The notes under the pieces: model-generated | The model's database searches: none | What the model was told of the DNA's origin: nothing | The model's input: only the letters and a program-made list of their open reading frames with translations | Origin: Rhodospirillaceae bacterium | GTDB lineage: Bacteria; Pseudomonadota; Alphaproteobacteria; Rhodospirillales; UBA2165 | Assembly (NCBI GenBank): GCA_947467145.1 | Contig: CANIGJ010000010.1 | Span: 21,396-85,395, forward strand | Direction of reading: 5' to 3' | DNA length: 64,000 nt | Part shown: piece after piece, positions 1,527 through 17,704 of the stretch | Position numbering within the stretch: the first letter of the stretch is position 1 | How the letters are laid out: every line of letters starts with the position of its first letter | Program-made: the position numbers and the translations under genes

Positions 1527-1554
1527 AAGGGGCGGCCAAATGGCCGCCCTTTTT
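1527..1554. terminator. Intrinsic terminator, probably bidirectional
   Basis: GGGCGGCCA-AA-TGGCCGCCC stem with T run after and A-rich run before, between convergent genes. Confidence 0.75.
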
Positions 1555-2206
1555 ATTTGAATCGCTCGAACAGCTCGAAGGTGCGCGCATCGGATAGATC
1601 GCCGGCGCCATTGGGTTTGCGGCGCCCGGTCGCGAAGCCATGCGGCTCCGGATAAAGATGGAGCGTGATCGCCGGGTTCTTCTTGGCTTCCGCGATGATC
1701 CAGTCGCGTTGCTCTTCGGTATAGGTCCAATCGTGCTCGGGCATATGCAGCAGGATCGGATCCTTGATGGTTTTGAATTCGTCCAGGTAGTCGTGCATCA
1801 AGGTGCCGTAATAGCTGGCCGCCGCATCGGCGCCGAGGCGCGTGACACTGACCAGCGCCGTATTGCCGCCCATGCAATAGCCGGTGGTGAGCACCTTGCC
1901 GTTGCATTCGGGCATGGCGCGGCCAGCTTCCATGGCGCTCTTGGTGACCTTGATGCCGGTCGTCATCTTGAAATTGTCGAGATAGGTGTGGTCCGCACCG
2001 CGTTCCACATCCCAGTAGATGTCGGGAACGATGACCAGGTAGCCGCGCTCGGCCCATTCGTCGGCCATCTGCTCGTACAAGGGGCGCAGGCCGTGGACAT
2101 CGAGTCCGACAACGACGACAGGGCCGCGTCCACCCTTGGGCTTGGAGACGTAGGCATCGAACGGATTGCCCGCGCTGTCTTTGAGTTTGATGGTTTCGCC
2201 GTTCAA
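1553..2206 (-). CDS. Dienelactone hydrolase family protein
   Basis: GYCMGG nucleophile motif, YYG, C-terminal HGF; TTG start with GGAGG RBS. Confidence 0.85.
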   Translation of the reverse strand: MNGETIKLKDSAGNPFDAYVSKPKGGRGPVVVVGLDVHGLRPLYEQMADEWAERGYLVIVPDIYWDVERGADHTYLDNFKMTTGIKVTKSAMEAGRAMPECNGKVLTTGYCMGGNTALVSVTRLGADAAASYYGTLMHDYLDEFKTIKDPILLHMPEHDWTYTEEQRDWIIAEAKKNPAITLHLYPEPHGFATGRRKPNGAGDLSDARTFELFERFK

Positions 2207-2231
2207 CGCGTCCCTCCAATTTTTGTGCTTA

Positions 2232-2246
2232 TTTCTCAGTGAGAAA
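2232..2246. promoter_or_regulatory. Palindromic operator TTTCTCA-G-TGAGAAA (putative IclR site)
   Basis: Perfect 7-1-7 inverted repeat in an AT-rich divergent intergenic region; same consensus as 7303-7317. Confidence 0.65.
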
Positions 2247-15456: not shown

Positions 15457-16561
15457 GAATACGTCCATGCTGGAGGTCCGCAATCTCGAGAAAAGGTTCT
15501 CGGCCGATGGCGGAAAGATCGTCAAGGCGATCGACAATGTGTCTTTCGATATCCCGAAAGGCACGATCTTCACGCTGCTGGGACCGAGCGGCTGCGGTAA
15601 GACGACGACCTTGCGTTCGGTCGCTGGGTTGGAGACGCCGGATTCGGGCGAGATCGTCGTTTCGGGTCGCACGGTCTTTTCGTCGGCTAAGAATATCCGC
15701 GTGCCGGCGGCCGAGCGCGGGCTGGGGATGATGTTCCAATCCTACGCCGTCTGGCCGCACATGACGGTGTTCGAGAATGTCGCTTTTCCGCTGACAGTGC
15801 CGATTCGGCGCGGGCAATACACCAAGGCGCAGGTCGAGCAGGAAGTCGGCCGCACCCTGGACGCCGTTGCGCTCGGTGGCTTTGAAGGCCGCCATGCGAC
15901 GCAATTGAGCGGCGGCCAGCAGCAACGCCTTGCCTTGGCGCGCGCCTTGATTTCCCGGCCGCCGCTGCTGCTGCTCGATGAGCCACTCAGCAATCTCGAT
16001 GCGAAGCTGCGCGAGAAGATGCGCTTCGAATTGAAGCGGCTGCAGGCCGATCTCGGCGTGACCAGCATCTATGTGACGCATGATCAGAACGAAGCCCTCG
16101 GCCTGTCGCATCAGATCGCGGTGATGAACCAGGGCCAGATCGTTCAGGTAGGTAGTCCGCGCGTCATTTACGAACAGCCGGCCAACCGCTTCGTCGCCGA
16201 ATTCGTCGGCACGACCAACTTTGTCCCGGCCGAGGTTCTGGGCCGTGACGGCGAACGCTATATGGTCGAAACCGCGTTCGGCAAACTGTCGCTCGCCACG
16301 CCGCGCGCGCTCAACACGGGTGACAAGATCGTGCTGTCGATACGTCCGGAACATGTGATGGTCAAGGCCGAGGCTGCGTCTGGGCCCAATAGCTGGGATG
16401 CCACCGTCAAAACCAATATCTTCCTGGGGTTCCATCAGGATCTCGAAGTGATGGCGGGCGGCTTGCTGCTCGAAGCGCGCATCCATCCGTCGCTCGATGT
16501 GCCGGTCGGCACGCCTGTCTCCATCAATATCGCGCCGGATCGGTGCATCGTCTGCGATTAA
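15449..16561 (+). CDS. ABC transporter ATP-binding protein (PotA/FbpC-like, with TOBE)
   Basis: [25 protein letters not shown] start after GAGGAG. Confidence 0.9.
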   Translation: MAENTSMLEVRNLEKRFSADGGKIVKAIDNVSFDIPKGTIFTLLGPSGCGKTTTLRSVAGLETPDSGEIVVSGRTVFSSAKNIRVPAAERGLGMMFQSYAVWPHMTVFENVAFPLTVPIRRGQYTKAQVEQEVGRTLDAVALGGFEGRHATQLSGGQQQRLALARALISRPPLLLLDEPLSNLDAKLREKMRFELKRLQADLGVTSIYVTHDQNEALGLSHQIAVMNQGQIVQVGSPRVIYEQPANRFVAEFVGTTNFVPAEVLGRDGERYMVETAFGKLSLATPRALNTGDKIVLSIRPEHVMVKAEAASGPNSWDATVKTNIFLGFHQDLEVMAGGLLLEARIHPSLDVPVGTPVSINIAPDRCIVCD

Positions 16562-16570
16562 GAGGGTAGA

Positions 16571-17704
16571 ATGGATTTTTCCACCATGGTGCTGACGATG
16601 TACGTCGCACACGAGGACGGCCCCGACACGGACGAAGAGGTTCTCAGCGTTGCGGTCGATCAGTCCCTTGCCTCGGCCGAGTTGGGTTTCAATCCCTGGT
16701 TCACGGAGCATCATTTCCGCGGGCCCTGGCACAGCAGCCCGCTGCAATTCGCGACCTACATCGCGCCGCAGATCCCCGAGGATCGTTATCTCGGCTTCGG
16801 CGTGCTGTCGACGCCCTATTACAATCCGGTGCGTTTGGTGGAGAGCATGAACCTGCTCGACCAATTGACGCGTGGGCGGACCCTCTATGGTCTGGGCAGC
16901 GGCTTTCCCGGCCTGGAACCGGCCGGCATGGGCTTGGACAAGGATTATCATGGCTCGGGTAAGGCCGCGCAGGACACGCTGGAGATCATCCAGAAGTTAT
17001 GGGCGTTCCGCACCGGCGATCCGGAATATGTCTTCAACACACCGACGCATCAGGGTTCGATCCGCCGCCGCGTGACCCCGGCGCCCTATCGCAAGCTTCA
17101 TCCGACCGTCATCCGTACGGCGAGCCGCGATGCATCGCTCATTGCCGCCGCGAAGAACGGTTGGCCGGTCTTCCTGGGCGCCACTGGTGCGACGGCGACG
17201 CCGGCCGAACAGTGGCGCACTTATCTCGATGCATTATCCAAGGAAATTCATTCGCCGGACGTGATCGCCGAATGCCTGCGTTGGAGCACGGTCGATTGGC
17301 TGAGCGTCGTCGTTGCCGATACGGATGCGGAAGCGCAGAAGCGCCTCGACCTTGCGCGCGCCGAACGCACTGCGATGCGGCAGAAATATGCCGCGCAGCA
17401 CGGTCCGCTCCATGGCCCGTTGAGTCGGGCGCGGCCCAGCGCATCGTCGGCGACGGCATTTGCCGCCGGCGGCGATATGATGGACAGCATCGTCGGCAAC
17501 CCGGACACCGTCGCGCGCAAGGTCCAGGAACTGGTCGATATGGGCGTCAATCACCTGCTGTTGCGCTTTGTGGGTGAATGGACCGGCGAAACGCGCTGGA
17601 TCTCGGAAACCTCCATGAAGCTGTTTGCCGAGGAAGTCGCGCCGAAATTCCACGATATTGCGCCGCATCGCGATCTGGACGCTGTGATGGCGGCTCGCGT
17701 CTAA
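16571..17704 (+). CDS. LLM class flavin-dependent oxidoreductase (luciferase-like)
   Basis: WFTEHHF, NPVRLVE...LDQLTRGR...GLGSG, IVGNPDTV. Confidence 0.85.
   Translation: MDFSTMVLTMYVAHEDGPDTDEEVLSVAVDQSLASAELGFNPWFTEHHFRGPWHSSPLQFATYIAPQIPEDRYLGFGVLSTPYYNPVRLVESMNLLDQLTRGRTLYGLGSGFPGLEPAGMGLDKDYHGSGKAAQDTLEIIQKLWAFRTGDPEYVFNTPTHQGSIRRRVTPAPYRKLHPTVIRTASRDASLIAAAKNGWPVFLGATGATATPAEQWRTYLDALSKEIHSPDVIAECLRWSTVDWLSVVVADTDAEAQKRLDLARAERTAMRQKYAAQHGPLHGPLSRARPSASSATAFAAGGDMMDSIVGNPDTVARKVQELVDMGVNHLLLRFVGEWTGETRWISETSMKLFAEEVAPKFHDIAPHRDLDAVMAARV

Follow-up and report, generated by a model that had tools for sequence, protein, structure and literature searches.

A candidate aromatic-acid cluster in a Rhodospirillaceae bacterium combines a core shared across lineages with locally added genes

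Introduction

Sixteen tightly packed genes of a Rhodospirillaceae bacterium encode relatives of two families of ring-opening dioxygenases, a Rieske oxygenase, several decarboxylase-like proteins and a complete ATP-binding cassette (ABC) importer, and they raise the question of whether one catabolic pathway, or several, is encoded at this locus. The genes span positions 1553-17704 of a 64,000-nucleotide stretch (hereafter the window), which is positions 21396-85395 of contig C10 (GenBank CANIGJ010000010.1) in the 3.7-Mb source genome, G000 (GCA_947467145.1). A first-pass annotation had read this cluster as a single linear route, in which a meta-cleavage-product (C-C) hydrolase releases a ring that is then decarboxylated by an OphC-like enzyme, hydroxylated by a 3HB6H-like flavoprotein and opened by a pair of small cupins, here called CupA and CupB. 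The reading that we prefer, at a probability of roughly 45%, is that of a composite cluster, under IclR control, for the breakdown of a carboxylated aromatic acid taken up from outside. As judged from gene families, such a cluster would combine a mobile core with local additions, and would comprise a meta-cleavage line, a second ring opening by CupA and CupB, and a feeder made of the OphC-like and 3HB6H-like proteins.

Results

A core of the cluster recurs in unrelated lineages

To place the cluster among its relatives, one genome per species was scanned for the LigB-superfamily extradiol dioxygenase encoded at its centre (hereafter LigB); the best 80 of more than 600 stretches were taken, and the cluster proteins were mapped onto them by tblastn. 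Ten of the 80 loci resembled the window, all with a LigB of at least 59% identity (L013-L020, L023 and L027). The Rieske oxygenase (58-74%) lay beside LigB in nine of these ten, none being found on L019, and the hydrolase (52-78%) was present in five (L013, L014, L015, L016 and L020). Four loci (L013, L014, L015 and L020) carried the ACMSD-like protein (51-61%), the IclR regulator (62-63%), the amidohydrolase-2 protein AH2a (46-47%), and the substrate-binding protein (SBP) and permease of the importer. The cupin pair was found inside the locus in three cases (L015, L023 and L027), just past the locus edge in the genomes of L013, L014 and L020, and about 12 kb from LigB in the L016 genome; among the genomes checked for the pair beyond the locus (those of L013, L014, L016, L017 and L020), that of L017 alone had no CupB orthologue. 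The other 70 LigB loci (at most 53% identity) had different neighbours, with a Rieske protein of at least 50% identity in only two.

A cupin scan of metagenomes gave at least 513 confirmed stretches, from which 77 loci were taken. A CupA orthologue (at least 60% identity) stood beside CupB in 32 of them, and the remaining 45, mostly short contigs, held CupB alone. Among the 23 cupin loci of 8 kb or more, LigB (61-73%) was present in three (L124, L127 and L154), the ACMSD-like protein (60-63%) in five, the SBP and permease in five, and IclR in three. Gene order varied: in L127, LigB, Rieske, a CDC48-type ATPase gene and cupA followed one another on one strand, with cupB divergent and the ACMSD-like gene adjoining, while the order in L154 was cupA-cupB-Rieske-LigB. 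In the closest relative, L094 (CupB 79%), the SBP (68%), cupB and IclR (71%) genes were side by side. The related loci come from metagenome-assembled genomes labelled Stellaceae, Alphaproteobacteria, Ca. Lustribacter and Burkholderiales, and from metagenomes. The first-pass annotation had named co-occurrence in other genomes as a check on the cluster, and the Rieske, LigB, hydrolase and cupin genes do co-occur in unrelated lineages. The conserved mobile core consists of the Rieske oxygenase, LigB, the hydrolase, the ACMSD-like protein, AH2a, IclR, the ABC importer and the cupin pair.

Genes for relatives of all four enzymes of a biphenyl-type upper pathway (Rieske oxygenase, dehydrogenase, extradiol enzyme and hydrolase) are present in the window. 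In related loci the dehydrogenase varies: a short-chain dehydrogenase (SDR) directly follows LigB in L017, and GFO-type dehydrogenases recur in L015, L124 and L127. Transporters of the TRAP or NMT1 type replace the PotD-type importer in some related loci. Since the FAH-family gene of L013 is an MhpD-type 2-keto-4-pentenoate hydratase (339 bits against a cut-off of 350), this family in the related clusters belongs with a meta-pathway and not with a gentisate pathway.

From families and synteny, the following line may be drawn for the core. The ABC importer would take up a carboxylated aromatic acid, which the single-subunit Rieske oxygenase, fed by an unlinked PDR-type reductase, would convert to a carboxy-substituted catechol with the help of a dehydrogenase (the SDR in the window, GFO-type in relatives). 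LigB would open the ring, the ACMSD-like enzyme would remove the carboxyl group from the ring-fission product, and the BphD/HsaD-like hydrolase would cleave the dienoate, to which relatives would add the MhpD-type hydratase. A CupA/CupB heteromer, with CupB as the catalytic subunit, would act as a second dioxygenase, of the gentisate/salicylate type, on a hydroxybenzoate-type intermediate. The OphC-like and 3HB6H-like proteins, added in this lake bacterium, may form a feeder that turns a (hydroxy)phthalate into 3-hydroxybenzoate and then into gentisate for CupA and CupB.

The proteins of the proposed feeder are local additions

The OphC-like and 3HB6H-like proteins, the SDR, the luciferase-like monooxygenase/oxidoreductase (LLM) and the dienelactone hydrolase (DLH) are local additions to the core. 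An OphC orthologue was found in none of the ten orthologous LigB loci and in none of the 77 cupin loci (one 29% match); OphC homologues of 46-47% did occur in two Dehalococcoidia loci, where the neighbouring LigB paralogues were 45-46% identical. The 3HB6H-like hydroxylase and DLH were each absent from the 80 LigB loci (no hydroxylase of at least 40% identity) and from the 77 cupin loci. An orthologous LLM was likewise absent from the 80 LigB loci, and just one (66%) occurred in the 77 cupin loci, in L139 next to a cupB that stands alone; LLMs that are not orthologous turn up repeatedly close to related clusters. Since the OphC-like, 3HB6H-like, DLH and LLM genes are not conserved with the core, their tie to it rests solely on operon position and on the shared promoter/operator element described below.

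These counts bear on the linear route of the first-pass annotation, in which the Rieske oxygenase, the SDR and LigB open a carboxylated bicyclic or heteroaromatic acid, the hydrolase frees a hydroxyphthalate ring, and the OphC-like enzyme, the 3HB6H-like enzyme and the cupin pair then act in turn. Such a route would account for the presence of two ring-cleavage enzymes and one C-C hydrolase together in several lineages, the best families of the hydrolase (HsaD and BphD) accept bulky substituents, and the sequence from OphC via 3-hydroxybenzoate and gentisate to a cupin is chemically coherent. A single-subunit Rieske oxygenase with a LigB-type enzyme and a hydrolase is likewise the layout of the carbazole car operon, and CarAa is among the PDB matches of the Rieske protein (E = 1.3e-17). 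However, in none of the other loci does an OphC or 3HB6H orthologue stand with the cupins or with LigB, so the cupins of the relatives must obtain their substrate in another way, and the co-occurrence data do not support a single line from the hydrolase through these two enzymes. In addition, the ACMSD-like enzyme and the MhpD-type hydratase of relatives fit a monoaromatic carboxy-catechol route, the hydrolase scores far under the cut-off of its best family (see below), and import through ABC, TRAP or NMT1-type systems suggests that the acid is small and polar. We consider the linear route quite improbable.

No LigB orthologue was found in 40 relatives, including a same-genus genome rated 100% complete; the best match was 40% identical and carried an internal stop. 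The cluster is therefore not traceable by vertical descent and, together with the location of the nearest OphC orthologues in phthalate operons, this suggests that the core and the OphC-like gene were acquired separately.

A unique putative promoter/operator element is shared by the two divergent gene pairs

The first-pass annotation had also reported a motif common to two divergent gene pairs. We found that the divergent intergenic regions 2207-2340 and 7259-7343 contain a co-linear 37-nt stretch that is identical at 27 of 37 positions; both copies carry CTTATTTCT and CAAAATT at identical spacing. A genome-wide search for the 27 common positions, allowing up to five mismatches, returned these two sites only in 3.7 Mb. 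Each divergent region also has a short dyad (Table 1). In the orthologous Stellaceae-type loci L013 and L014 a dyad lies at the same place beside iclR with another sequence; the sequence of the 37-nt element is not conserved in these two loci, the position of the dyad alone being kept, which is the appearance expected of specific, co-evolved operators. A promoter scan, with 5 sites against 5.5 expected, was uninformative for both divergent intergenic regions. Both operon pairs are probably governed through this putative shared element, to which we infer that the IclR protein binds. The description of the locus as an IclR-associated aromatic catabolic cluster, with two blocks that share an element unique to them, is supported.

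In the Stellaceae-type loci L107 (9192-9893) and L096 (3562-4455), a GntR/FCD regulator gene lies between divergent cupA and cupB, and genes for an NMT1-type binding protein and another Rieske protein come after cupB. This placement indicates that the Stellaceae-type lineage uses two regulators, GntR and IclR.

The shared element bears equally on the question of whether the locus is a mosaic, that is, independent modules without a common substrate (importer and Rieske units, a gentisate-type module, a phthalate decarboxylase and a meta-cleavage module) that happen to lie side by side. The genome is rich in paralogues, with about 45 Rieske proteins (single-subunit, LigXa/phthalate-type), 14 LigB-type, 11 OphC-like, 12 amidohydrolase-2 and 10 DLH proteins; more modules lie upstream, downstream in the window and on contig C25, and five cluster genes are not conserved with the rest. 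A mosaic would explain this abundance, but an element found at the two divergent regions and nowhere else argues for common control, the genes overlap or abut within each operon, and the core set travels together across phyla. A mosaic seems to us highly doubtful.

Family relationships of the proposed meta-cleavage enzymes

The best sequence match of LigB was MhpB, with E = 4e-4 when LigB was searched alone and 5.8e-7 when a profile of 18 homologues was used, and all NCBIfam scores were far under their cut-offs. Its predicted model (pLDDT 84, pTM 0.88) had the LigAB beta subunit as top Foldseek match (E = 4e-17, TM 0.73 by target), and the fold matches comprised LigAB, DesB, MhpB, and homoprotocatechuate and aminophenol dioxygenases, each at 20% identity or less. 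H11, H66, H204 and E312 are invariant in the 18 homologues; judged by position, they may be the His/His/Glu iron ligands and the catalytic histidine. At least 3249 proteins were related to LigB at E ≤ 1e-10 among 8000 candidates scored, and the source names of these relatives were only "hypothetical" or "extradiol ring-cleavage dioxygenase". Judged by its sequence and its modelled fold, this protein is a member of the superfamily that stands outside the characterised LigB, DesB/GalA, MhpB, HpaD, AmnB and DODA subfamilies.

The hydrolase reached 138 bits against HsaD (cut-off 400) and 103 against BphD (cut-off 462), and on these scores it is a relative, not a member, of the two equivalogs. The ACMSD-like protein matched human and bacterial ACMSD at E = 1e-48 to 1e-36 (human, 2.8e-48 over residues 9-332), and its sequence shows the metal motifs HxH, H, H and D; judged by numbering, two arginines may correspond to the ACMS-binding pair. 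AH2a matched the solved non-oxidative decarboxylases about equally (ACMSD 4e-23, LigW 2e-22, others to 1e-17).

The Rieske oxygenase has visible CxH...CxxH and DxxHxxxxH motifs. Its 188 N-terminal residues matched phthalate 4,5-dioxygenase at E = 5.5e-50, and its C-terminal domain gave a partial LigXa_C match at 1e-14, compared with 1e-127 for the Rieske proteins that stand beside true OphC orthologues, to which it is 28-29% identical. The genome yielded a single PDR-type reductase, at C14:64165-65121, which shares 38% identity with the reductase of locus L009. The coexistence of about 45 Rieske proteins with this one reductase suggests one shared electron donor, and the C14 reductase may be the partner of the cluster Rieske oxygenase.

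The OphC-like and 3HB6H-like proteins resemble characterised enzymes

Residues 1-329 of the OphC-like protein align with residues 21-349 of PDB entry 9jp7, named 4,5-dihydroxyphthalate decarboxylase by its depositors, over the full length at about 65% identity (E = 1.5e-135). The orthologues closest to it (59-61%) are encoded in classical phthalate operons. The phthalate dioxygenase, reductase and cis-diol dehydrogenase that form this context are absent from the window and are fully or partly present around the orthologues in genomes G040 and G004; the best match in the source genome to the Rieske protein of the OphC-orthologue operon is 38% identical. As the protein is one of 11 OphC-like paralogues in the genome, the substrate of the window copy is not to be assumed. 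Four OphC-like genes in tandem (C11:85272-89295) are 31-35% identical to the window copy, and relatives of the same family carry up to 12 copies. The 3HB6H-like flavoprotein scored 392.5 bits against NF006021 (3-hydroxybenzoate 6-monooxygenase; cut-off 459), and its match to PDB 4bjy (E = 2.8e-104), which we take to be 3-hydroxybenzoate 6-hydroxylase, was far ahead of 6-hydroxynicotinate and salicylate hydroxylases. At sequence level both labels of the first-pass annotation are therefore sound. The Comamonas 4,5-dihydroxyphthalate decarboxylase also converts 4-hydroxyphthalate to 3-hydroxybenzoate, the conversion on which the proposed feeder would depend.

The same similarities could be read as a phthalate-type monoaromatic route, in which the Rieske oxygenase and SDR act on a phthalate-like diacid, the OphC-like enzyme yields protocatechuate or an analogue, and LigB, the ACMSD-like enzyme and the hydrolase follow, leaving the cupins and the hydroxylase as a side branch. 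The nearest relative of the Rieske N-terminal domain and the close match of the OphC-like protein to a solved decarboxylase agree with such a route, and protocatechuate 2,3-cleavage uses a LigB-type enzyme with the decarboxylase PraH. The opa pathway of Pseudomonas sp. PTH10, which degrades o-phthalate, similarly has a Rieske oxygenase, an SDR, an extradiol enzyme and an ACMSD-like decarboxylase (PMC6362003). However, the catalytic domain of the Rieske protein is not like that of phthalate dioxygenase by either of the comparisons given above, the core occurs without OphC in all other loci, and the classical dehydrogenase partner is of the GFO type, not an SDR. This route appears unlikely to us.

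CupA and CupB look like a bicupin dioxygenase split in two

CupA and CupB are paralogues with 37% identity. CupB matched the catalytic N-terminal domain of gentisate dioxygenase (3bu7, E = 2.5e-15) and of salicylate 1,2-dioxygenase (E = 4e-10); its HRH and EHQH motifs are kept in all 11 aligned orthologues, and H86, H88 and H131 (with H129) are invariant. CupA matched the C-terminal domain of gentisate dioxygenase (E = 1.4e-6), and the HxH motif was present in none of its 11 aligned orthologues. The proteins are encoded by two genes and not as the single chain of a bicupin, and the NCBIfam gentisate_1_2 score was 32.8 bits against a cut-off of 442. As CupB resembles the catalytic domain and CupA the second domain without HxH, the pair looks, by sequence, like a bicupin dioxygenase divided between one catalytic and one degenerate subunit, with gene order the reverse of domain order, and the split-cupin label of the first-pass annotation is borne out at this level. 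An atlas look-up for CupA returned only clusters without a functional name.

Prediction of the CupA-CupB complex gave a score of 0.90, with 0.00 for the best of three controls, 100% contact agreement between runs and partner pLDDT of at least 86; the mark for a pass is reached by 116 of 157 solved complexes and by 2 of 215 mismatched pairs. Since bicupin and cupin-dimer structures have been solved, this pass may reflect likeness to them. By this prediction, CupA binds CupB.

The gene found most consistently next to cupA, in metagenome as well as genome loci and in differing orders, encodes a CDC48-family double-ring AAA+ ATPase; in the source genome it lies left of the window (Table 1). The protein scored 720 bits against TIGR01243 (cut-off 803). 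Its gene adjoins cupA, at 65-83% identity, in 14 of the 77 cupin loci, with a fragment at the edge of L096; it is present in 10 of the 14 long loci that have a CupA orthologue, and also in L013, L014, L015 and L020. An even sample of 400 genomes of the class contained no orthologue, only four paralogues of 41-44% with no cupins nearby, which indicates that this is no housekeeping gene of the class. No explanation for a link between a CDC48-type ATPase and cupins was found in the literature searched for such bacterial gene clusters.

This association is one ground for doubting that the cupins cleave rings at all. Together with the ATPase, the pair could instead perform, for example, an isomerase or hydratase step on products of ring fission, or have a protein-level role in the assembly or turnover of the iron enzymes of the pathway; fold searching does not discriminate among cupins, and a cupin of the riboflavin pathway works as a dienedioate hydratase (PMC12746152). 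Against this, CupB aligns specifically with the catalytic domain of gentisate/salicylate dioxygenases and keeps the three-histidine pattern throughout its orthologues, and a monocupin ring-cleaving enzyme of this type, the gentisate-type 5-nitrosalicylate dioxygenase 8ch4, has been solved. A function other than ring cleavage is thus doubtful in our view. The riboflavin/lumichrome pathway itself was rejected as a model for the cluster, as its two-subunit Rieske, P450, xanthine oxidase and thiamine-diphosphate enzymes (PMC12746152) are absent here.

A further conjecture, to which we attach a low probability, is that the ATPase is a working partner of CupA and CupB. The three would then form an ATP-dependent ring-cleavage or iron-enzyme maintenance system, within a widespread uncharacterised pathway (a new LigB subfamily with a divergent Rieske oxygenase) through which bacteria of soils and lakes consume an abundant carboxylated aromatic of humic or lignin origin. 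One possible task of the ATPase would be to assemble the dioxygenase or to reactivate it, metal-free CupA serving as its adaptor.

Gene content, borders and assembly

Genes were called from an open reading frame (ORF) listing and a call based on third-codon-position G+C, and families were assigned with Pfam and NCBIfam (Table 1). All 16 genes of the first-pass annotation are present on the strands and in the families that it gave, with codon-position G+C as in real genes and, in the ORF listing, with genes abutting or overlapping within each operon. No protein of the 16 reached an NCBIfam equivalog cut-off, the nearest being the 3HB6H-like flavoprotein. Nor did any of them have a Pfam match to a reductase, ferredoxin, FAH-family or isomerase family, in keeping with the earlier statement that the cluster has no Rieske reductase, maleylpyruvate isomerase or FAH-family hydrolase. 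After revision, the likely start codons are 12653 for the SBP, 10556 in place of 10439 for the SDR, and 15449 in place of 15383 for the importer ATPase. The left border at 1553 did not hold. To its left, on the forward strand, lie an ABC ATPase, a fused permease, a second Rieske gene (Rieske2) and a second SBP gene (C10:17784-21796 and window 1-1523), so that the cluster reaches past this border. Rieske2 is 38% identical to the cluster Rieske protein, and the second SBP 22% identical to the SBP at 12653.

Table 1. Features of the cluster and its left flank. Coordinates are window positions unless a contig is given.
Feature	Position	Strand	Basis and remarks
CDC48-family double-ring AAA+ ATPase, 814 aa	G000:C10:15301-17745	-	3.6-6.1 kb left of window start
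Rieske2, 3' part of second Rieske oxygenase	1..401	+	Pfam Rieske and LigXa_C; whole gene G000:C10:20651-21796
Second SBP (SBP_bac_6/8/1/11)	441..1523	+	Pfam; last gene of importer-Rieske2 operon
Terminator-like G+C-rich hairpin, 8 G-C pairs	1530..1549		Between convergent SBP and DLH genes; hairpin scan overall not above shuffles
DLH, dienelactone hydrolase	1553..2206	-	PF01738, E = 7.7e-31; window-specific
Shared 37-nt element, copy 1	2228..2264	+	Perfect 7-nt inverted repeat (dyad) at 2232-2246
AH2a, amidohydrolase-2, non-oxidative decarboxylase/hydratase-type	2341..3321	+	PF04909; core, orthologues 45-52%
OphC-like decarboxylase homologue	3340..4329	+	PDB 9jp7 match; window-specific insertion
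CupA, Cupin_2, no HxH metal motif, 169 aa	4343..4852	+	Matches gentisate dioxygenase C-terminal domain
CupB, Cupin_2, invariant HRH...EHQH, 176 aa	4849..5379	+	Matches catalytic N-terminal domain of gentisate/salicylate 1,2-dioxygenases
ACMSD-like amidohydrolase-2	5399..6409	-	Human ACMSD match; core, orthologues 60-63% from cupin loci
IclR regulator	6422..7258	-	Pfam, NCBIfam; core, orthologues 59-71%
Shared 37-nt element, copy 2	7278..7314	+	Further dyad at 7270-7286 beside iclR start
Meta-cleavage-product (C-C) hydrolase, alpha/beta fold	7344..8222	+	HsaD/BphD-like; orthologues 52-78% in L013-L016 and L020
Single-subunit Rieske oxygenase	8279..9433	+	Pfam Rieske and partial LigXa_C; core
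LigB-superfamily (class III) extradiol dioxygenase	9463..10545	+	Pfam, fold; core
SDR	10556..11419	+	Pfam; revised start
3HB6H-like flavoprotein, FAD_binding_3	11450..12628	+	NF006021, PDB 4bjy; window-specific
Periplasmic SBP, signal peptide	12653..13747	+	Core, orthologues 50-68%
Fused two-domain ABC permease	13744..15456	+	Pfam, NCBIfam; core
ABC ATPase with TOBE domain	15449..16561	+	Pfam, NCBIfam; revised start
LLM, luciferase-like monooxygenase/oxidoreductase	16571..17704	+	PF00296

The 10-kb centre of the cluster was found almost word for word in lake-water metagenome runs of two studies; no RNA run was among the matches listed. Four lake-water runs that are not flagged as source gave contigs covering all 30 bins and spanning the DLH/AH2a/OphC, OphC/cupA/cupB/ACMSD-like and LigB/SDR/hydroxylase junctions, and the arrangement is therefore no assembly chimera. 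As these runs may share the campaign of the source sample, the match speaks for assembly consistency and not for independent occurrence. One run (X8) contained a variant diverging by about 3%, with the same order SBP-DLH-AH2a-OphC; 14 bases are inserted behind 1551 and one base behind 16565, and one base is deleted at 5382, each change falling in an intergenic spacer.

The cluster is one of many paralogous modules in the genome. Left of the window, C10:10129-13806 encodes a class II aldolase-like protein (best match PhtC, 3,4-dihydroxyphthalate decarboxylase, 85 bits against 200), a second IclR protein, a bicupin near gentisate/5-aminosalicylate dioxygenases (210 bits against 442) and an HpaI-like aldolase; an LLM and a third Rieske gene also lie further left, and the window LLM has a 51% paralogue at C10:8988-10061. 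Right of the cluster, at window positions 20793-22842 on the reverse strand, tblastn located a GFO/IDH/MocA-like ORF and a LigB-like ORF (27% identical), and it placed further Rieske paralogues at 25194-26342 and 58957-60117 and a 45% AH2a paralogue at 57797-58732. The region C25:35066-60093 holds a 60% LigB paralogue together with an FAH-family gene, UbiD, a molybdenum hydroxylase large subunit, two Rieske genes, a GFO dehydrogenase, a 54% hydrolase paralogue and a two-subunit ring-hydroxylating dioxygenase; this module may encode a route for N-heteroaromatics. Genes for nitrile hydratase alpha and beta, a UbiD-family decarboxylase and another amidohydrolase-2 lie a few kb outside the Stellaceae-type cluster of L013 (15671-18962), with a similar set in L020.

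Discussion

Several observations weigh against the composite cluster that we prefer. The OphC-like, 3HB6H-like, DLH and LLM genes are not conserved with the core. The core line is itself not invariant, since a hydrolase of at least 50% identity is missing from seven related loci (L017, L018, L023, L027, L124, L127 and L154). With so many Rieske, LigB-type and OphC-like paralogues in the genome, neighbouring genes do not have to act on a common substrate. No maleylpyruvate isomerase or hydrolase and no HPD hydratase or aldolase is encoded in the cluster, and the best match in the genome to the L013 hydratase is only 32% identical. A search with the CupB fold (model pLDDT 69.7) returned generic cupins without singling out dioxygenases, and a plain dioxygenase role does not account for the tight link between the cupins and the CDC48-type ATPase.

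How the candidate cluster relates to known systems can be seen from six of them. In E. coli, the mhp layout comprises the IclR-type regulator MhpR, the flavin hydroxylase MhpA, the LigB-type dioxygenase MhpB, the hydrolase MhpC and the hydratase MhpD. In the window, too, genes for a LigB-type dioxygenase, a C-C hydrolase and a flavin hydroxylase belong to an operon that diverges from iclR; LigB has its best sequence match in MhpB, and an MhpD-like hydratase occurs in related clusters. However, the similarity to MhpB is marginal, the window adds the Rieske, ACMSD-like and cupin genes, and it has no hydratase, aldolase or dehydrogenase of the mhp kind. The lignin-biphenyl (DDVA) pathway of Sphingobium SYK-6 (LigXa, LigZ, LigY and LigW) combines a Rieske enzyme of the LigXa fold with a LigB-superfamily dioxygenase and two amidohydrolase-2 enzymes in a single route for a dicarboxylated biaryl, but matches to LigY are weak (E = 1.7e-4) and those to LigW modest (1e-15 to 1e-22), and the C-C hydrolase of the window has an alpha/beta fold and is not an amidohydrolase. 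The carbazole car operon (CarAa, CarBaBb and CarC), which releases an ortho-substituted benzoate, shares a single-subunit Rieske oxygenase, a LigB-type extradiol enzyme and a meta-cleavage-product hydrolase; it differs in that the match to CarAa is distant, LigB of the window is a single 360-aa chain, and the window has no ferredoxin or reductase genes.

With the gentisate pathway, the window shares the likeness of its hydroxylase to 4bjy and of CupB and CupA to the catalytic and second domains of the bicupins 3bu7 and 2phd. In contrast to that pathway, the dioxygenase is divided between two genes whose order is the reverse of the domain order, with the non-catalytic half kept as a protein of its own. 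The cluster also has neither maleylpyruvate isomerase nor maleylpyruvate hydrolase, and none of the related cupin loci encodes the hydroxylase. The classical phthalate 4,5-dioxygenase pathway, represented by locus L009 around the nearest OphC orthologue, has a decarboxylase about 59-65% identical to the OphC-like protein and a Rieske oxygenase with a related N-terminal domain. That pathway has oxygenase, reductase and GFO-type dehydrogenase, whereas the window has neither reductase nor GFO dehydrogenase, the catalytic domain of its Rieske protein is divergent, and its OphC-like gene lies between an amidohydrolase and the cupins. The opa pathway of Pseudomonas sp. PTH10 degrades o-phthalate via meta-cleavage of 2,3-dihydroxybenzoate (PMC6362003), and it matches the window in the Rieske oxygenase, an SDR-type dihydrodiol dehydrogenase, an extradiol enzyme and an ACMSD-like metal-dependent decarboxylase acting on a carboxylated ring-fission product. 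In the description of that pathway, the Rieske oxygenase is multi-component, the extradiol enzyme is of type I and not LigB-type, the semialdehyde is oxidised and not hydrolysed, and no cupins, OphC, 3HB6H, ABC importer or IclR are named (PMC6362003).

The first-pass annotation had recognised no characterised pathway in the cluster, and we likewise found no match in the literature searched for such gene combinations. The core of the cluster, which recurs in bacteria of soil and fresh water, is widespread and uncharacterised, and it has one odd association, that with the ATPase. The LigB-type family is large and unstudied, with more than 600 genome stretches and no solved structure above 20% identity, and the cupin pair is common in metagenomes, where it carries no functional name. 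A CDC48-type unfoldase tied to a catabolic dioxygenase had no precedent in the literature searched. The window shows the core picking up putative feeder enzymes, a homologue of a phthalate decarboxylase and one of 3HB6H, and naming the substrate would give a function to a common, unnamed step in terrestrial aromatic carbon turnover.

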